Source of the DNA: an uncultured delta proteobacterium
GTDB lineage: Bacteria > Desulfobacterota > Binatia > UBA9968
Length of the DNA: 64,000 nucleotides
Assembly (NCBI GenBank): GCA_963727625.1
Contig: CAVSHR010000005.1
Location: 704,001-768,000 of the forward strand
Direction: 5' to 3'
The position numbers and the translations under genes were made by a program. The notes under the pieces are model-generated. The model made no database searches. It saw only the letters and a list, made by a program, of their open reading frames with translations, and was not told the origin of the DNA. Below are positions 3,789-11,087 of this stretch, one piece after another; the stretch's first letter is position 1, and each line of letters begins with the position of its first letter.

Positions 3789-5585
3789 TTACCGCCCGTT
3801 GAGCCCAGCGGAATTAGCGGGCAGTTTCCCGCGTCCCCTGAGTTCCCGGGTCTCCGCTTCGTCAAATGCAAATTTTCTCCCGTTCTGCTTGATCACCACG
3901 CCGTAATCGCGGCGCGCGGCGTCTAAGGACACATATCCCGAGCGAACGTCCGCGAGCACGCGCTCCGGATCCCGTTCCAACGGATTCCAGAAACCGCCGC
4001 CACCGCCGACTTCGACAAGAAAACCGTCTTCGCAGGCAAGCGTCGCATGGCCGATCGTCTTGCCCGTCGGCAACCTTTCGATCGAGCCATCCTTGCGCAC
4101 GATGCTGAAACGATTTGCCTGCGCGTCCCTGCCGCCGTGCAGTCCCCAGGGCGCGCACTTGGTGCGCTCCATCGCCGACAGTACGCTCCCCGGCGCGAGC
4201 ATGCGCACCTCCTGGGCCACGCCCAGGCCGCCGCGAAATTTCCCCGCGCCGCCCGAATCCTGGCGCAATTTGCGATAAGAAATAAAAATCGGCCCTTTCC
4301 CTTCGCCCGCCTCCACCGGCGTGTTGTGGGTATCGCCGTCGTTGATGCAAAAAGTCGCGTTTTGCCCGTCGCGGTCATGCAGAGCGCCCCAGCCGCCGCC
4401 GGACAGCGTCTGAGGAAAATGAAAGGCCCGGCCGGTTTTCGGATCAAGGCCGAAGGTGCGCGGCGCCGCCAGATCGGCGTGATGGCCGGCGAGCACGTTT
4501 TCTGGACAGGCCGGCGCCAGCGCTTTGAAGATCGTATCGGCCACGGTCATCGGCACGGTCATCCAGGTGCGCACCGGCGCCGGCTTGGTCGCGCTCACCA
4601 CCCGGCCGGGGGGGAGAATGATCTTCAGCGGGCGAAACGAGCCTTCGTTGATCGGCAAATACAGCGGAGTAGTCAGAAATTTAAAGGCGACTTCGGAGGC
4701 CGAGCGGCCCGCGGTAGCGCCGGAATTGTACGGCCCGGCGACCTGCGGGCTCACCCCGCTCAAATCGACGGTCATCTCTGCGCCGCGCACTTCGACGCGG
4801 ACCTTGATCGGAATAGGTTTACCCAGATTAACGCCGTCGTCGTCCATGGAAGACTCGGCTTCGTAGACGCCGGCGGGAATTTTTTCCACCGCGGCGCGCG
4901 CCAGCTTCTCGCTTTGATCGAAGATCAACAGCACGCTTTCTTTAAAGGTCTCGGTGCCGTAGCGTTGCAGCAACCGCGTCAAGCGCCGCTCGCCGGTGCG
5001 AATGGCTGCGAGCTGAGCGCGAAAATCGCCCATGGCGAATTCGGGCAAGCGGCAGTTGTTGCGGATGATCGCCGTGAGCTCCGCGTCTTGCTTGCCGGCT
5101 TTAAAAATCTTCACGAACGGCATTTGCAGCCCTTCGGAAAAAATATCCCGCGTCACTGCGCCGAGCACGCCGCCGACATCCTGCCAATGCCCCATGGATG
5201 ATGAAAACGCGATCAATTCGCCGTCATAAAAAATCGGCAGCGTAAAAATCATGTGATTGAGATGGCTGCCCATCACCTGCGGATCGTTGGTAAGGAGGAT
5301 GTCGCCGGGAAAAATATTTTTTTTGCCCCAGTGCCTGAGCTTCGCCTTGACCGCATCGGACAAGCCGCGGATGAACATCGGCAGGCCAAGACCGATAGAG
5401 ATCGTGTTGCCGTCGGCGTCGAACAGGCCTACGGTAAAGTCCTCCGCCTCGTAAATGATCATGTTGTAGGCGGTGCGCATGAGGTTGGTCTTCATCTCAT
5501 CGGTGATCGCCACCACCGTGCTGCGGATCACTTCGGCGGTGAAGGCGTCTATTGTCGATGGATTTGGTGTCATCTCGGCGCTCAC
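3789..5585 (-). CDS. Hydantoinase B/oxoprolinase family protein (downstream paralogue)
   Basis: LMRTAY..IYEAEDF, PGDILLTND, HWQDVGG, EGLQMP, DSGGAGKFRGGLG, GGGGFWNPLERDP..VLADVRSGYVS. Confidence 0.9.
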   Translation of the reverse strand: MSAEMTPNPSTIDAFTAEVIRSTVVAITDEMKTNLMRTAYNMIIYEAEDFTVGLFDADGNTISIGLGLPMFIRGLSDAVKAKLRHWGKKNIFPGDILLTNDPQVMGSHLNHMIFTLPIFYDGELIAFSSSMGHWQDVGGVLGAVTRDIFSEGLQMPFVKIFKAGKQDAELTAIIRNNCRLPEFAMGDFRAQLAAIRTGERRLTRLLQRYGTETFKESVLLIFDQSEKLARAAVEKIPAGVYEAESSMDDDGVNLGKPIPIKVRVEVRGAEMTVDLSGVSPQVAGPYNSGATAGRSASEVAFKFLTTPLYLPINEGSFRPLKIILPPGRVVSATKPAPVRTWMTVPMTVADTIFKALAPACPENVLAGHHADLAAPRTFGLDPKTGRAFHFPQTLSGGGWGALHDRDGQNATFCINDGDTHNTPVEAGEGKGPIFISYRKLRQDSGGAGKFRGGLGVAQEVRMLAPGSVLSAMERTKCAPWGLHGGRDAQANRFSIVRKDGSIERLPTGKTIGHATLACEDGFLVEVGGGGGFWNPLERDPERVLADVRSGYVSLDAARRDYGVVIKQNGRKFAFDEAETRELRGRGKLPANSAGLNGR

Positions 5586-5617
5586 TCTGCCTTCGAAGCT
5601 AAGATCCTATCCACAAC

Positions 5618-5727
5618 GATTTTAGACTTAGGATTTTTGATTTTAGATTGTCGGACTGGCCAGGAGCGTGAATCTGAACAACTGTGTTCCTGTTCTTTTC
5701 GCAATCCAAAATCGAAAATCCAGAATT
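5618..5727. repeat. Inverted pair of heptamer tandem arrays (GATTTTA... / AATCCAA...)
   Basis: GATTTTA GACTTAG GATTTTT GATTTTA GATTG at 5618-5650 and CAATCCAA AATCGAA AATCCAG AATT at 5702-5727. Confidence 0.75.
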
Positions 5728-5752
5728 TACGCTGCACGGAGAAAAATGACCA

Positions 5753-7525
5753 TTACGAGCCATTGGCTCGGCGTAAAGCCAAAGTGGCTGCGGCATCGAG
5801 CTTGAACCGCCGCCCTTGCTGTTCAACGACGACCCCGTACTCCCGTCGTGCCGCTTCCAAAGTCACGTAACCCGAGCGCACGTCGGCGAGAACTTTTTCC
5901 GCCTCCCGCTCCAACGGATTCCAGAAACCGCCCCCGCCGGCGGTCTCGATGAGAAAACCTTCACCTGCTTCGAGCTCGGTCGGCTTGATCTTTCCCGTGG
6001 CGAATTTTTCAACCTTGCCATTATGGCGCAGGATCGAGATCCGGTTCGCCAGTGCCGCGGCGCCGCCGTGCAGCCCCCAAGGCGCGCAGAGGGTCCGCTC
6101 CATGCGCGAGAAGATGGTCGCCGGCTTGCGCATGCGCACCTCCTGGGACACGCCTAGGCCGCCGCGAAATTTTCCCGGACCAGCCGAATCCTGGCGCAAT
6201 GATCTTTGCTCGACGATGATCGGGCTTTTCGCTTCGGTCGCCTCGACGGGCGAGTTATGCGTGTCGCCGTCGTTCAAGGCCACCGTCGCGCTCATCCCGT
6301 CTTGGTCCGACTTCGCGCCCCAGCCGCCGCCCGGATGGCCGATATGCGACCAGAAGAATCGCCCGGTTTCGACGTCGAAGCCGTGCGGGTTGACGATGCA
6401 CAGGTCGGCGTAGTGCGCCGCCAGGGTGCGCTCCGGGCAAGCGTCGGCCAAAGCTTTGAAGATCGTGTCGCATACGGTCATCGGCACGGTCATCCAGACG
6501 CGCACCGGCGCCGGCTTCATCGCGCTCACCACCCGGCCGGGGGGGAGGATGATCTTGAGCGGGCGAAACGAGCCGTCGTTGATCGGCAACAGCAGCGGCG
6601 TGGTGATGCACTTGAAGACCACTTCCGCCGCCGATCGGCCGGCGGTGATGCCCGAATTGTAAAATCCCGCCACCTGCGGGCTCACCCCGGTCAAATCGAT
6701 GGTCATATTCGCGCCGGCGACTTCGACGCGGACTTTGATCGGGATATGCTTGCCGAGGTTGACGCCGTCGTCGTCCATGAACGACTCGGCTTCGTAGACC
6801 CCGTCGGGAATCTGCCGTACCGCGGCGCGCGCCAACTTTTCGCTCTGTTCGAACACCCGGCCGATGCTGTCTTTGAACGCTGGATTGCCGTAGCGTTGCA
6901 GTAAATGAAGCAGGCGCCGCTCGCCGGTGCGGATCGACGCCAGTTGCGCGCGCATGTCGCCCATCGCCCGTTCCGGCACGCGCACGTTGGCCTTGATGAT
7001 CGAAGTGATCTCGGTATTTTCCACGCCGGCGCGGAAGTGCTTCACGAAGGGCAGCTGGAGCCCCTCGGAAAAGATATCCCGGGTGACGCCGCCGAGCTGC
7101 CCGCCGATGTCCTGCCAGTGGGCCATCGACGAGGCGAACGCCACCAGCTCGCCTTCGTTGAAAATCGGCAGCGTGTAAATCATATGGTTAAGATGGCTGC
7201 CCATGATGTAGCTGTCGTTGGTCAGGAGAATATCGCCGGGCTCGATGTTCTCCTTGCCCCAGAAGGAGATCTTCGACTTGATCGCATCCGACAAGCCGCG
7301 AATGAACATGGGTAGGCCGAGGCCGATGGAGATCGTGTTGCCGTCGGCGTCGAACAGACCGACGGTAAAATCTTCCGCCTCGTAGATGATCGTGTGATAC
7401 GCCGTGCGCATCAGATTGGTCTTCATCTCGCCGGTGATCGCCACCACGGCGCTGCGGATCACTTCGGCGGTAAAAGCATCGACGGTGCCTGCGTTTGCCG
7501 CAGCATGCTTCATTTCAGATTGCAT
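5753..7525 (-). CDS. Hydantoinase B/oxoprolinase family protein (upstream paralogue)
   Basis: Same motifs as 3789-5585, with long identical peptide stretches between the two copies. Confidence 0.9.
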   Translation of the reverse strand: MQSEMKHAAANAGTVDAFTAEVIRSAVVAITGEMKTNLMRTAYHTIIYEAEDFTVGLFDADGNTISIGLGLPMFIRGLSDAIKSKISFWGKENIEPGDILLTNDSYIMGSHLNHMIYTLPIFNEGELVAFASSMAHWQDIGGQLGGVTRDIFSEGLQLPFVKHFRAGVENTEITSIIKANVRVPERAMGDMRAQLASIRTGERRLLHLLQRYGNPAFKDSIGRVFEQSEKLARAAVRQIPDGVYEAESFMDDDGVNLGKHIPIKVRVEVAGANMTIDLTGVSPQVAGFYNSGITAGRSAAEVVFKCITTPLLLPINDGSFRPLKIILPPGRVVSAMKPAPVRVWMTVPMTVCDTIFKALADACPERTLAAHYADLCIVNPHGFDVETGRFFWSHIGHPGGGWGAKSDQDGMSATVALNDGDTHNSPVEATEAKSPIIVEQRSLRQDSAGPGKFRGGLGVSQEVRMRKPATIFSRMERTLCAPWGLHGGAAALANRISILRHNGKVEKFATGKIKPTELEAGEGFLIETAGGGGFWNPLEREAEKVLADVRSGYVTLEAARREYGVVVEQQGRRFKLDAAATLALRRANGS

Positions 7526-7565
7526 ATGCCAATACTCATCGCAAAATTGCCAACTTGAGGCTTTC

Positions 7566-7598
7566 CGTCATTCCCGCGCACGCGGGAATCCAGGTCAC
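7566..7598 (+). repeat. CGTC-tagged REP-like palindrome (ATTCCC-N8-GGGAAT core), left copy
   Basis: CGTCATTCCCGCGCACGCGGGAATCCAGGTCAC; inverted partner at 8355-8386. Confidence 0.8.
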
Positions 7599-7607
7599 TT
7601 CCAACCG

Positions 7608-7688
7608 CTATAGAATGTCGCCCCAGAGATCTTTCCAGCCCGGATTCTTCTCCTCGATCAGTTCCAGCTTCCAAGCTCGGTTCCATTT
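7608..7688 (-). pseudogene. C-terminal remnant of GIY-YIG nuclease family protein
   Basis: Reads KWNRAWKLELIEEKNPGWKDLWGDIL*, the typical tail of small GIY-YIG proteins. The 5' part is absent (in-frame TGA at 7695-7697). Confidence 0.75.
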
Positions 7689-7827
7689 TTGGGGTCATCG
7701 CGTAATGGAGTGGGTGGAAACGGATGCTTGTTAAGATGAAACCCTCCTATACCGGATCGCAAACATTCACAATTCCTATGAAGAGATTTGGCATGATTTA
7801 GGGATAACAGCCTGCTGATTTTGGGAC

Positions 7828-8235
7828 CTACGGTATCACTCTCCCATGAACGGTCCCTCCCTTTGGTAAAGGGAGGTTAGGAGGGATTTTCATGGCTTGA
7901 AAGATCGATTCCAGCACCGCCTCTGTTTGGAGCAACACTTCTCGGTCGTCAAAACGCAAAATTTTTAGTCCTTGCTGTTCCAGCTCCTTGGTCCTTTGTA
8001 GGTCGTATTTTACTGCTCGAGCCTCCAAATGCTGAGCGCCGTCCAGTTCTACGACTAGTTTTGCTGCCGGCGCATAAAAATCAGCGATGTACTTACCGAT
8101 TGGTTTTTGCCTATAGAACTGCACGCCGTGGATTTGTTTTCGTCGCAAGTGATGCCACAGATGTAGCTCGGCGTCGGTCGGATTGGCACGCAAGGTTCGC
8201 GCTTTAGCCTTAAGCTGGTGGTTGTAAGGTAACAT
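7828..8235 (-). CDS. DUF559 / very-short-patch-repair-like endonuclease
   Basis: MLPYN..LKAKARTLRANPTDAELHLW..LR..QFYRQKPIGKYIADFY...LVVELDGAQH...D..R...L...G..ILRF. Start ATG at 8235. Confidence 0.88.
   Translation of the reverse strand: MLPYNHQLKAKARTLRANPTDAELHLWHHLRRKQIHGVQFYRQKPIGKYIADFYAPAAKLVVELDGAQHLEARAVKYDLQRTKELEQQGLKILRFDDREVLLQTEAVLESIFQAMKIPPNLPLPKGGTVHGRVIP
7854..7891 (-). repeat. Palindromic repeat (CCTCCCTTT-N3-AAAGGGAGG), left inner copy
   Basis: Reverse complement GAAAATCCCTCCTAACCTCCCTTTACCAAAGGGAGGGA resembles 8239-8273. Confidence 0.75.
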
Positions 8236-8238
8236 CGC

Positions 8239-8273
8239 GAAAATCCCCCCATCCCCCTTTTTCAAAGGGGGAG
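8239..8273 (+). repeat. Palindromic repeat (TCCCCCTTT-N3-AAAGGGGGA), right inner copy
   Basis: GAAAATCCCCCCATCCCCCTTTTTCAAAGGGGGAG immediately upstream of the DUF559 start. Confidence 0.75.
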
Positions 8274-8354
8274 TTGAAACCTTCAAGAACAGCATTTCTT
8301 ACCAAGCTCACCCACTCAATCACGCGCGATTCTATTTTTTAGATCTGCTCTCGT

Positions 8355-8386
8355 GTGGCCTGGATTCCCGTTTGCACGGGAATGAC
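8355..8386 (-). repeat. CGTC-type REP-like palindrome, right copy
   Basis: Reverse complement GTCATTCCCGTGCAAACGGGAATCCAGGCCAC matches 7567-7598 at 28 of 32 positions. Confidence 0.8.
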
Positions 8387-8403
8387 AGACAAGAATCCGC
8401 ACC

Positions 8404-10470
8404 TCACGACTGCCCCAAGGTCATGACCAAATGACCGAACGCGTTCACCGTCACGGTATCGCCCGGCTCAATCACGGTGGTCGACGCAGCCTCCTCGATG
8501 ATCGCAGGGCCGGCGATAACGTTACCGCGCAATAGCTTGCTACGATCGTATACCAGCGCTTCCACGGCGGCCCTGCCGTCGAAGTTCACCTTGCGTACTC
8601 CGCGCCGGGCATTCTCAGGCGGATGACTCCCGCCCTGGGGAATCTGCGGGAACTGCGGTTTTCCCAGTCGACCGATCGCCGACACGCGCAGGCTGACAAT
8701 GTCGGCGGACTCCTCCGGCGCACTGTGGCTGTAACGCAGCTCATGTGCTTCGTCAAACAGCCGCTTGATCTCGGCCCGCGCCGACTCGTCGCCGACCGCA
8801 GCCGGCACGCGCACCGCCACCGCATGCTCCTGGCCGACGTAACGCATATCGGCCGCGCGCTCGAAAACAATTCGGTCGGCCGAAATGCCCGACGCCTCCA
8901 GCGCTTGCCTGCCCTCCGCTTCGAGCCTCTGGAACTGATCTTCCAACTGAAACATTTCCAAATCGTCCATGCGCTCGAAAAGTGTCTGAACGTAATCGCG
9001 GCGCAGATCGGCCATCAGCATGCCAAGAGCGGAAAAATGGCCCGGTGCGTTGGGAATAATAATTTTCTTGATCGATAGCTCTTTGGCGACCGACGCGGCA
9101 TGCAGCGGCCCGCCGCCGCCATAGGCGACTAGCGTGAAGTCGCGCGGGTCGAGGCCGCGTTCGAGCGTCACGTGGCGGACCGCGTTGGCCATCGCCGCGG
9201 TGGCCACTTGCAGCATACCGGCGCCCGCCCGTTCCAAACTTACGGATAGCGGCTGCGCTAGCTTCTCGCGCAGGGCTTTTTCCGCGGCGCCGCGATCGAG
9301 ACGCATTTCGCCGCCGAGAAAACGTTCCGGCGAAAGCCGCCCGAGTATCACGTTGGCATCCGTGACCGTTGGTTCGTTGCCGCCGCGGCCGTAACTCGCC
9401 GGGCCCGGCTCGGCCCCCGCGCTGCGCGGTCCAACATGCAGACCGCCGCCTTCGTCGAGCCAAGCGATGCTGCCGCCGCCGGTGCCGATTTCGACGATGT
9501 CGAGCACGGGAATGCGGACCGCCAACCCTTCGTTATAACCACCGATGAAATAATCCGGCGAAAGGCTCGGCTCGCCGCGCCGGATGACGCAGGCCTTGGC
9601 GGTGGTCCCGCCCATGTCGAAGGCGATAGCGGCGTCGAGATCGAGCATTTCACAGAGCGCCATGGTGCCAACCACGCCGCCCGCGGGGCCTGATTCCATC
9701 ATTTGAATGCATTGGCGCCGCGCCATCTCGACATCGGACAAGCCGCCGTTGGATTGCATGATCATCAGGCTGCCCGTAAAGTGCTGGTCGCGCAGGCGGC
9801 GTTCCAGATCGCCCAGGTACCGGCTTACCTTCGGCCCGACATACGCGTTGGCGGCAACCGTCGAGGTACGTTCGTACTCGCGATACTCGCGCGATAGCTC
9901 ATGGGAGGCGCTGAGAAATAAACTGGGGGCGGTCTCGCGCAGAATTTCGCACATGCGGAGCTCGTGATCGGGCGCGCGGTACGAATGGAGAAAAAGGACC
10001 GCCACCGCTTCGAAGCCTTCTTCTTTGATGATCCGCGCCACCTCGCGCGCTTCTCGCTCATCGAAAGGCGTGCGGACCGAGCCGTCGGCGAGCATGCGCT
10101 CGGTGACTTCGAAAATATCTTCCCGCGGCACCAGCGGGCGATGCTTGCGAAAACGCGGATTAAAGGATTCCGGGCGGTTGATCCGGCCGATCTCGTAGAC
10201 GTCACGAAAACCCTTGGTCGTGACCAGCGCGGTCTTGGCGCCCTGACGTTCGATCACCGCATTGATCACCACGGTCGAGCCATGAATCAGGCTGGAGACT
10301 TCGTCGAAACGCACCGCAGCTTTGGTCAAGCCCTCCAACACGCCGCGCGCCAGCTCCACCGGCGTGGACAGCGTCTTAGCCAACGCCAACGCGCTCTTCG
10401 CCTCGTCAAAAACGACGACGTCGGTAAACGTTCCACCGATATCCACCGCGACACGCAAGCTGCCCTCCAA
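8404..10470 (-). CDS. Hydantoinase A/oxoprolinase family protein (ATP-binding subunit)
   Basis: VDIGGTFTD, TTKGFRD, REYERTST, ESGPAGG, DMGGTT, GPRSAGAEPGP, PTVTDAN, RGLDPRDF, DMRYVGQ. Confidence 0.92.
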   Translation of the reverse strand: MEGSLRVAVDIGGTFTDVVVFDEAKSALALAKTLSTPVELARGVLEGLTKAAVRFDEVSSLIHGSTVVINAVIERQGAKTALVTTKGFRDVYEIGRINRPESFNPRFRKHRPLVPREDIFEVTERMLADGSVRTPFDEREAREVARIIKEEGFEAVAVLFLHSYRAPDHELRMCEILRETAPSLFLSASHELSREYREYERTSTVAANAYVGPKVSRYLGDLERRLRDQHFTGSLMIMQSNGGLSDVEMARRQCIQMMESGPAGGVVGTMALCEMLDLDAAIAFDMGGTTAKACVIRRGEPSLSPDYFIGGYNEGLAVRIPVLDIVEIGTGGGSIAWLDEGGGLHVGPRSAGAEPGPASYGRGGNEPTVTDANVILGRLSPERFLGGEMRLDRGAAEKALREKLAQPLSVSLERAGAGMLQVATAAMANAVRHVTLERGLDPRDFTLVAYGGGGPLHAASVAKELSIKKIIIPNAPGHFSALGMLMADLRRDYVQTLFERMDDLEMFQLEDQFQRLEAEGRQALEASGISADRIVFERAADMRYVGQEHAVAVRVPAAVGDESARAEIKRLFDEAHELRYSHSAPEESADIVSLRVSAIGRLGKPQFPQIPQGGSHPPENARRGVRKVNFDGRAAVEALVYDRSKLLRGNVIAGPAIIEEAASTTVIEPGDTVTVNAFGHLVMTLGQS

Positions 10471-10480
10471 AAGGATAAAG

Positions 10481-10552
10481 TTGGAGTGTTGGAGTTCTGG
10501 AGTATTGGGCCAGCACCATCACTCCATTGTTCCACTACTCCATGACTCCAAT
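10481..10552. repeat. Inverted octamer tandem arrays (TGGAGTRT / ACTCCA)
   Basis: TGGAGTGT TGGAGTTC TGGAGTAT TGGG followed by CCATCACT CCATTGTT CCACTACT CCATGACT CCAA. Confidence 0.75.
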
Positions 10553-10557
10553 CTGTT

Positions 10558-10989
10558 TTAGCCGCACCGATGATTGGCGAGATATTCGTTTAACCACTTG
10601 TCCCAGGTGTTATCGATCCTGCGGATCGCGCCCAGTTGCGAATCTTCGCCGTCGTTCTCCTCCACCAGCGCAACCACGCGCAGGTCGACGCCGGCGAGGT
10701 GCGGATCGGCGCAAAAATGATCGCGCACCATCACCGTGCCGGCTGTTTCCAACTCGGCCAAAGCGCAATCCACCTCCGCCGCGCTGATCTGCAACCGCCC
10801 CAGGGACGCGTACAACTCGGTCATGAAGCGCGCCTTCTTGTCGCGTGCACGCAGTAGGTCAAGCACTCTTTCGCGGAGATTTTTTTCTTTTGCGACGTTA
10901 TCCGTTTCGGTAGTGCGATGCATCGTGACCGGCATGACTGATCCTGCGTGATACTCAGAACTCTTAATGAACCGATGGGACGTTGTCAA
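10558..10989 (-). CDS. Hypothetical protein, possible winged-helix fold, His/Cys motifs (start may be downstream)
   Basis: Only substantial ORF between hyuA and selA, with protein-like composition (RDHFCADPHL, WLNEYLANHRCG). Confidence 0.7.
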   Translation of the reverse strand: MTTSHRFIKSSEYHAGSVMPVTMHRTTETDNVAKEKNLRERVLDLLRARDKKARFMTELYASLGRLQISAAEVDCALAELETAGTVMVRDHFCADPHLAGVDLRVVALVEENDGEDSQLGAIRRIDNTWDKWLNEYLANHRCG

Positions 10990-11087
10990 TCAACCGATTC
11001 AAACCCGGGAAGCGGGCGCGCGATTGCGACGAGGTAAAGCGACCATGTTGAATTTACCCCCCTCACTGTGCAAATCTTTGATTTCTT

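Follow-up and report, generated by a model that had tools for sequence, protein, structure and literature searches.

A DUF559 nuclease gene bracketed by triplex-type repeats within nested traces of putative mobile elements between hyuB and hyuA of a Binatia bacterium

The 878-bp spacer between hyuB and hyuA in an uncultured delta proteobacterium (Desulfobacterota; Binatia; UBA9968; GenBank assembly GCA_963727625.1) harbours three nested pairs of inverted repeats, the innermost of which encloses a small nuclease gene of the DUF559 family. We analysed this locus within a stretch of 64 kb (contig CAVSHR010000005.1, positions 704,001 to 768,000), hereafter the window, whose numbering is used throughout, and compared it with other loci or sources, designated L001, L002 and so on. 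A repeat search recovered all three pairs where a first inspection of the letters, the sequence-only reading, had placed them: outer arms of 35 nt, 86% complementary (7564-7598 and 8355-8389), middle arms of 18 nt, 89% (16/18) complementary (7699-7716 and 8309-8326), and inner hairpin cores (7859-7873 and 8255-8269) that extend to modules of 39 nt (7853-7891) and 38 nt (8238-8275). The spacer has a G+C content of 47-52%, compared with 60-67% in the hyuB and hyuA genes. Counted over the 64 kb, the inner motif CCCTTT-N3-AAAGGG (up to one mismatch) has two matches, both of them the inner pair (0.16 expected; one of 100 shuffles reaches two), and the middle 18-mer (up to three mismatches) likewise has two, both the middle pair, with 0.00 expected. 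The outer motif, ATTCCCG-N6-CGGGAAT (up to two mismatches), also matches only the outer pair, with 0.58 expected and 13 of 100 shuffles reaching two; taken alone, this motif is weak and not beyond chance, and its weight comes from the NTS/ssnA match described below.

The identity of the gene between the inner pair, which the sequence-only reading had named correctly, is borne out by a nearly full-length Pfam match (Table 1). A conserved core of 119 aa corresponds to 7879-8235, and the open reading frame (ORF) continues through the downstream repeat; all 30 invariant columns of the family alignment are present in the protein. At 7879-7895, the 3' A-run of the gene has one A fewer than in most relatives, with the consequence that the usual ending, K-N-P-S-stop, is replaced by a read-through of 16-20 residues into that repeat, as in several relatives from the database. 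A protein search returned 1070 DUF559 relatives among 1080 candidates; many of the 120 relatives listed sit on short contigs, whose lengths range from several hundred to several thousand bases, and the predicted N- and C-terminal extensions of relatives encode the flanking repeats. The window protein is not a YcjD orthologue, because it scores 91 bits with the NCBIfam model PRK09767, whose equivalog cut-off is 218. Its predicted fold is fixed by a close solved relative, PDB 3HRL (a Neisseria gonorrhoeae 'endonuclease-like protein', E=9e-25), with a further match to 3R3P (I-Bth0305I) at E=0.06. I-Bth0305I, a homing endonuclease that sits in a group I intron, and Vsr, which nicks duplex DNA at T:G mismatches, are both sequence relatives of DUF559 with solved structures. 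Unlike the DUF559 cassette, the vsr gene is not flanked by repeats, and its product acts on mismatches in duplex DNA. An earlier prediction places YcjD-type proteins among the PD-(D/E)XK nucleases, as relatives of Vsr (PMC1189080).

The repeats flanking this gene had been taken for simple hairpins. They are instead composed of three blocks, a pyrimidine arm and a purine arm forming a stem, followed by a G-rich box, and are referred to here as triplex motifs (TMs). Both copies of the window fold (3' TM, -8.5 kcal/mol, z=-2.68; 5' TM, -8.7 kcal/mol, z=-1.86), and the 3' TM was recovered by both the generic triplex finder and the nhmmer profile described below. At nearly all loci, the upstream copy reads C-tract, TTT, loop, AAA, G-tract, about 3 nt and GGGGGGATTT, and the downstream copy is its inverse. 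When 75 downstream copies were aligned, 97.1% of the stem cells were paired, with double changes at 4 of 9 pairs, a result that none of 500 shuffles reached. The G-box after the stem mirrors the purine arm and changes along with it: mirrored identity was found in 20 of 40 informative cells, compared with 3.3±1.6 in shuffles (0 of 2000 reach the observed value), and an alignment-free parse, covering 314 of 373 sites, gave 31 of 120 against 8.2±2.4 in shuffles. Interruptions of the blocks fall into four classes, and all three blocks stay in step within each: CCTCCCTTT / AAAGGGAGG / GGAGGG (20 sites, 16 sources), TCCCCCTTT / AAAGGGGGA / AGGGGG (34 sites, 22 sources), CCCCTCTTT / AAAGAGGGG / GGGGAG (5 sites, 4 sources) and CCCTCCTTT / AAAGGAGGG / GGGTGG (7 sites in L077 and one, register-shifted, in L057). 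A purine mirror repeat after a hairpin is what the triplet rules require of an intrastrand purine-motif triplex, and it is by this mirror covariation that the motifs are told from plain hairpins.

Judged by their sequence, the inner repeats belong to the class of intrastrand-triplex motifs known as BoxC, 'potential intrastrand triplex' (PIT) elements or TMECO, names for a single sequence class (Holder et al. 2015, PMC4666352, who cite Hoyne and Maher 2000). The TMECO pattern consists of a C-arm, 3-6 nt, a G-arm, 3 nt (TTA or CCG) and a second G-arm; 23 were counted in MG1655 and 3,610 in 262 genomes, often as inverted pairs, and the isolated single strand forms a triplex in vitro, as seen by circular dichroism and nuclear magnetic resonance (PMC4666352). 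The TMs share with this class the C-rich arm, the loop of 3-6 nt, the G-rich arm, the 3-nt loop and the second G-rich block, the 3-nt loop being TTA both in type A and in the 3' TM of the window; in both cases the motifs are intergenic, widespread and found as inverted pairs. The stems differ, with CCTCCCTTT/AAAGGGAGG in the window and CCCTCNCCC/GGGNGAGGG in the published class. Moreover, the motifs of the window bracket a nuclease gene, whereas the text of Holder et al. reports no transposase, integrase or mobile element near TMECO motifs (PMC4666352). The words DUF559, ycjD and endonuclease are absent from that text. A literature search found no published link between DUF559 and a repeat; the supplementary gene tables of Holder et al., which lay outside this search, may list ycjD as a neighbour.

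The association between TMs and DUF559 genes was assessed in 80 loci retrieved by one search of genome contigs, all bacterial, from at least nine phyla and with protein identities of 48-82%. An nhmmer profile was built from the TM flanks and its hits were counted on both strands. An adjacent TM was found at 79 of 82 DUF559 genes, on both sides of 52, downstream only of 25 and upstream only of 2, with none at the remaining 3; several of the 25 downstream-only genes have a variant upstream form. TM density is 5.0 per kb beside the gene and 0.24 per kb elsewhere. We also used a generic, family-blind triplex finder (8-nt blocks with at most one mismatch per block, and loops of 3-7 and 2-4 nt) on 90 genes, namely these 82 and 8 more distant ones chosen to span taxa. 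A TM lies within 160 nt of 83 of the 90 genes, and on both sides of 48, while 794 of 20,000 random 680-nt windows placed away from the gene hold one (4%). Shuffles of 40 sources yielded no TM site, compared with 149 real sites. Co-occurrence of repeat and nuclease families across genomes, which the sequence-only reading had proposed as a check, is thus observed for DUF559, and we consider the DUF559-TM association strong, supported and apparently new.

The history of this association was examined on a tree of 74 DUF559 proteins, from which 8 of the 82 genes were excluded because they were incomplete or interrupted. The class of the 3' TM is clear in 61 rows, among which it changes 9 times along the tree; in 300 shuffles the number of changes averaged 21.3 and never fell below 17. 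Host phylum, scored on 65 rows, changes 13 times; this is below every shuffle (mean 18.7, minimum 17), and host phylum is nevertheless close to scattered on the tree. The DUF559 gene and its two TMs are therefore inherited as a unit and cross phyla together, although joint inheritance does not by itself establish co-evolution.

The same figures bear on the possibility that TMs are pre-existing repeats that serve as landing sites, between which the DUF559 gene homes, so that the pattern would reflect choice of target rather than co-transfer. The TM-rich genomes (L037, L043, L059, L062 and L070) fit this idea, as many doublets flank ordinary genes there in the same manner. However, for 51 of the 81 sources the sequence covered, up to 20 kb, holds no TM other than those at the DUF559 gene, and the window contains exactly two TM sites in 64 kb, both at the gene. 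Given also that TM class follows the gene tree and not the host, and that the difference between the two TMs of a cassette is conserved across phyla, we regard homing into existing repeats as very unlikely.

Far from the gene, TM copies are concentrated in a few beta-proteobacterial genomes, where they form inverted intergenic doublets and a tandem array (nhmmer hits on both strands: 74 in L043, 40 in L059, 28 in L062, 23 in L037 and 19 in L070). In some genomes, TMs of this class have increased in number, giving solo copies as well as doublets and arrays. A Gallionellaceae metagenome-assembled genome (MAG; L043, 1-1300) holds a tandem array of gene-less inverted TM doublets with a period of ~123 nt. 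TM doublets also enclose each of the ordinary genes that lie downstream of DUF559 in a betaproteobacterial MAG (L037, 9880-11520); they are oriented as at DUF559 and have the G-box a few nt before the ATG, in the manner of a ribosome-binding site. The L037 doublets raised the possibility of integron attC sites, a reading that was dropped, as the intergenic doublets appear to lack the usual attC core sites. A Methylomirabilota MAG (L044) carries two DUF559 cassettes, at 7778-8176 and 10706-11041, 2.9 kb apart.

In Escherichia coli, the DUF559 gene is ycjD. In strain KE47, the ycjD frame runs into a TM, and a second TM copy follows. In MG1655, the region 3' of ycjD contains, in order, a degenerate TM at the stop codon, a partial duplicate of the 3' end of ycjD with its own degenerate TM, and TMECO no. 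9 (Table 1 of Holder et al.), 168 nt from the ycjD stop; the duplicate and TMECO no. 9 share the ycjD-fabI spacer (L094; MG1655 1351040-1351406). The duplicate suggests a trace of a former tandem second copy. Matches to the KE47 TM occur in 4,911 of 5,426 complete E. coli genomes, at a median of 16 places per genome, and ycjD is found in 3,378 of the complete genomes. A joint query, sampled at even steps down its ranking and reported here as counts, covered 60 genomes: the 37 with ycjD have 8-24 TM places (median 15, the gene's own included) and the 23 without it have 1-13 (median 2).

The main rival to a nuclease-substrate role holds that TMs serve as signals for the expression or stability of a small cassette lacking a promoter. 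The G-box, 6-10 nt ahead of the ATG, would then function as ribosome-binding site, the transcript would be shielded by the 3' hairpin, and DUF559 would act on mismatches, as Vsr does, on foreign DNA or on a homing target. A box GGGGGG/GGAGGG plus ATTT does directly precede the DUF559 start codon, the same box directly precedes the host genes bracketed by TM doublets in L037, orientation is constant, with the box towards the gene start and the hairpin after the stop, and TMs persist in E. coli without ycjD. On the other hand, a ribosome-binding site needs no mirror covariation between arm and box, which points to a folded three-block structure, and gene-less doublet arrays such as that in L043 have nothing to express. 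Neither promoter-like nor terminator-like sites were found at 7500-8450, and PIT elements lacked promoter and terminator activity in earlier work, as cited by Holder et al. (PMC4666352). We consider the signal role unlikely, though it retains an appreciable share of the probability.

Around the cassette, the middle pair of repeats corresponds to a different kind of DNA. The closest relatives of the DUF559 gene also have the middle arm, which reads GGCTCTTCGCGTAATCGAGTGGGTGAAA (L001, 9905-9932). L001, L002 and L008 carry it on both sides, and L003, L004 and L005 only on the upstream side. In L001, L002 and L008, the middle and inner pairs occur together as one unit of 534-536 bp at unrelated, A/T-rich sites, bounded by direct repeats that agree at 8/8 positions in L002 and L008 and at 7/8 in L001. 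In none of the 80 loci was sequence shared with the window outside 7840-8339, nor were further copies of the middle arm found in them. A blastn search of the arm against a plasmid collection gave matches in 69 records, all weak (E of at least 0.4); the two that were inspected, on Enterococcus faecium DO plasmid 3 and a Ca. Manganitrophus plasmid, both lie 30-60 nt outside annotated ISL3 transposase genes, with the alignment running from the first base, GGCTCTTC. ISL3 elements generate 8-bp target duplications. In the window, 5-6 of 8 positions of the putative duplication agree, depending on the register, at a T-run with an eroded right end.

Like ISL3 insertion sequences and their miniature derivatives (MITEs), the 642-bp element delimited by the middle pair has ends that start with GGCTCTTCG and align with ends beside annotated ISL3 transposases, and it is small and without a transposase; unlike them, it carries a passenger gene with repeats of its own. 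The middle pair can thus be assigned to ISL3-type terminal inverted repeats, and not to a nuclease palindrome. Because ends of this type are accompanied by 8-bp duplications in relatives, a transposase acting in trans is implied, and 7692-8333 was probably moved by such an enzyme. The claim that the locus has no transposase accordingly stands locally, as none of the 39 non-overlapping ORFs of at least 110 aa in the 64-kb window matches a transposase family, but not for the origin of the middle layer. Furthermore, the proposal that the inner and middle layers were inserted successively is not supported, as the two form a single unit at unrelated sites in L001, L002 and L008.

The outer pair encloses the remains of another nuclease gene. 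On the minus strand, 7611-7694 translates to 28 residues, followed by a stop at 7608-7610. In a pairwise alignment with a 94-aa N. gonorrhoeae protein they match its residues 68-94 at 70% identity (19/27 residues; E=2e-12), and that protein in turn matches Pfam GIY-YIG at E=4e-19; the 28-aa fragment has no Pfam match of its own. What the window contains is a remnant, not a gene, of a single-domain GIY-YIG protein (~94 aa, cd10448). As the sequence-only reading had indicated, the remnant breaks off near the middle repeat: it ends exactly at 7692, the outer end of the full middle arm, 7 nt before 7699. By tblastn, this tail was also detected in 32 records of the plasmid collection, many of them annotated 'GIY-YIG nuclease family protein', and in each of the three loci inspected a complete GIY-YIG gene is closely flanked by hairpin repeats. 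These differ by host: in Neisseria they are of the dRS3/NTS type, in Novosphingobium they consist of an unrelated palindrome, and in Azospirillum they are doublets of the GTCATCCCCGC...GCGGGGATCCAGG type. On the Azospirillum lipoferum plasmid AZO_p3 (L082, 1150-1800), the ssnA-type gene, with hairpin doublets on both sides, lies between sufB and sufC, an operon-internal insertion comparable to that in the hyuB-hyuA spacer.

The GIY-YIG nuclease SsnA cleaves single-stranded DNA adjacent to NTS, its own repeat, and the NTS-ssnA-NTS arrangement has been likened to an insertion sequence and to REP/RAYT (Chenal et al. 2025, PMC11893778). With an NTS-consensus hairpin on the left, an inverted variant on the right and an ssnA-type C-terminus between them, the outer layer is recognisable as a decayed member of this Ssn/NTS system, already published in 2025; it differs in that ssnA is dead here, with 28 of ~94 codons remaining. 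A further ssnA remnant may lie between the miniature element and the right NTS copy (8332-8355), where K-K would fit the K-K-W of SsnA-type proteins if the miniature element were removed; the two pieces join in frame only given six A's in the A-run, and this match is suggestive only. In N. gonorrhoeae (L090, 150-300), a triplex-type motif with a TTA second loop lies immediately upstream of a DUF559 gene, which we take to be the one encoding the 3HRL protein. Neisseria has both nuclease-repeat systems, Ssn-NTS and DUF559-TM.

The sequence-only reading had envisaged self-mobilising nuclease-palindrome systems that inserted successively at one hotspot without a transposase, so that each of the three pairs would belong to a nuclease. 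Nuclease genes do account for the outer and the inner pair, and the notion of nucleases that travel with their own palindromes holds for GIY-YIG, where it was already published (PMC11893778), and for DUF559, by its TMs at 83 of 90 genes. It fails for the middle pair, which matches ISL3 ends, has 8-bp duplications in relatives and travels with the inner pair as one unit, and we give the threefold version hardly any weight.

Table 1. Features of the hyuB-hyuA spacer and its neighbours, in window coordinates
Feature	Position	Strand	Remarks
hyuB (hydantoinase B/oxoprolinase), left neighbour	5753..7525	-	Pfam PF02538, E=5.8e-149
NTS/SRM hairpin repeat, left outer copy	7566..7593	+	all 28 positions fit the published NTS consensus CGTCATTCCCGCGMAVGCGGGAATCYRG (PMC11893778); as single-stranded DNA, fold -8.0 kcal/mol, z=-3.05
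ssnA-type GIY-YIG nuclease gene, predicted 3' remnant	7608..7691	-	last 27-28 codons and stop (7608-7610), by translation
Possible 8-bp target-site duplication, left copy	7684..7691	.	T-run; partner 8334-8341
Putative ISL3-type miniature element	7692..8333	.	642 bp, without transposase, carrying the DUF559 cassette; ends match ISL3 termini
Left terminal inverted repeat	7692..7719	+	4/28 mismatches to L001 arm 9905-9932; includes 7699-7716
DUF559 (Vsr-like PD-(D/E)XK) nuclease gene	7828..8235	-	Pfam PF04480, E=1.6e-35, profile positions 2-108 of 109
3' TM	7853..7891	+	pyrimidine arm CCTCCCTTT, loop GGT, purine arm AAAGGGAGG, loop TTA, mirrored box GGAGGGATT
5' TM, coding strand	8238..8275	-	TCCCCCTTT, loop, AAAGGGGGA, short loop, GGGGGGATTT; ends 2 nt before ATG
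Right terminal inverted repeat	8306..8333	-	includes 8309-8326; outer 7 nt eroded; more than 6 mismatches to L001 arm
Stretch between miniature element and right NTS	8332..8355	-	24 nt; translates to H-E-S-R-S-K-K-stop
NTS/SRM hairpin repeat, right outer copy, inverted	8360..8387	-	variant, stem CGTG...AACG; fold -9.5 kcal/mol, z=-4.95
hyuA (hydantoinase A), right neighbour	8404..10470	-	Pfam PF01968, E=2.6e-100

The rest of the window is ordinary chromosome, with selA/selB, glycogen and trehalose genes and numerous sensor kinases, and no Rfam family was found anywhere in it. Two other intergenic segments show inverted arrangements. The low-G+C spacer (47%) at 5586-5752, between tandem hyuB paralogues (3789-5585 and 5753-7525), has its own inverted A/T-rich repeat pair (GATTTTAGA... 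/ ...AATCCAAAATCGAAAATCC) and may be another miniature element. Upstream of hyuA, at 10470-10557, GGAGT-type pentamer repeats stand opposite their complement ACTCC.

Taken together, these observations are best explained, in our view with moderate confidence, by two insertion events involving three kinds of mobile DNA, with DUF559 acting on the TM. An NTS-ssnA-NTS element would have settled in the hyuB-hyuA spacer and decayed to two NTS copies and about 28 ssnA codons. The 642-bp ISL3-type miniature element would then have inserted into an A/T-run within the already shortened ssnA remnant, cutting it at 7692, moved in trans by an ISL3 transposase encoded elsewhere in the genome or on a passing replicon. 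Its cargo would have been an intact TM-DUF559-TM cassette. The window holds this cassette as a passenger of low copy number, and its 64 kb contain no other TM. As a Vsr-like, nicking-type nuclease, DUF559 may recognise the folded TM in transiently single-stranded DNA and cut at or beside it, and this activity would seed or maintain TM copies, following the logic of RAYT-REP and SsnA-NTS. That DUF559 acts on the folded TM and nicks beside it is what we infer from this analogy.

Both comparisons have limits. As in Ssn, the DUF559 cassette consists of a single-domain nuclease gene of ~100 aa within its own structured repeats, multiplying in some genomes; the nuclease, however, is of the PD-(D/E)XK and not the GIY-YIG type, and the TM is three-block and predicted to be triplex-capable, in contrast to NTS with its plain hairpin and oriented flank. 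With REP/REPIN-RAYT it shares a single-copy gene flanked by an inverted short structured repeat that also occurs as dispersed singlets, inverted doublets and clusters, but enzyme fold and repeat structure are different, and action on the TM is proposed by analogy. Membership in REP/RAYT was rejected, the likeness being one of layout: none of the 39 ORFs scanned has an HUH (Y1) domain.

Several points weigh against this explanation. We found no biochemical result that ties any DUF559 protein to a TM, and Holder et al. did not see a triplex when the DNA was duplex, nor did they observe protection in vivo (PMC4666352). The 80 loci represent one DUF559 subfamily, picked by likeness to the window protein, and the 8 distant loci were hand-picked from 36 plasmid-collection records. 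Seven of the 90 genes (L040, L060, L073, L080, L087, L091 and L092) have no TM by the strict finder, with shorter look-alikes visible by eye in L087, L091 and L092. For the middle layer, no ISL3 transposase was found in the 64-kb window, and the target duplication of the window is ambiguous, with the outer 7 nt of the right arm eroded. In E. coli, comparison of the separate counts leaves ~1,500 genomes with TM-like matches and no ycjD, and O157:H7 genomes keep 10 TM places without the gene. Since ycjD is specific to certain phylogroups, being confined to A, B1 and C plus ST69 and ST182, with eefRABCD in its place elsewhere (PMC12817139), the contrast in copy number follows phylogroup and may reflect ancestry alone.

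Knowledge of BoxC/PIT/TMECO motifs in E. coli dates back to the 1990s; hundreds of genomes conserve them, and they have been linked to local genome instability (PMC4666352). A nuclease gene with TMs on both flanks across at least nine phyla provides a concrete candidate for the unexplained origin of these triplex repeats. With ycjD as the candidate in E. coli K-12, the question can be put to the test in a standard laboratory strain. We tentatively propose, at slightly less than an even chance, that DUF559/YcjD-type nucleases are the missing enzyme partner of BoxC/PIT/TMECO and form a third nuclease-repeat partnership beside RAYT-REP and Ssn-NTS, one in which the structure recognised by a Vsr-like PD-(D/E)XK fold would be a folded DNA triplex and not a plain hairpin. 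The window offers a worked example of selfish elements piling up, in which a triplex cassette appears to lie in an ISL3-type miniature element that destroyed an Ssn element. If DUF559 does read triplex-forming single strands, it would be a new structure-specific DNA tool, as proposed of Ssn for single-stranded DNA. If true, the DUF559-TM partnership would explain how triplex repeats arise, spread between phyla and destabilise their surroundings.

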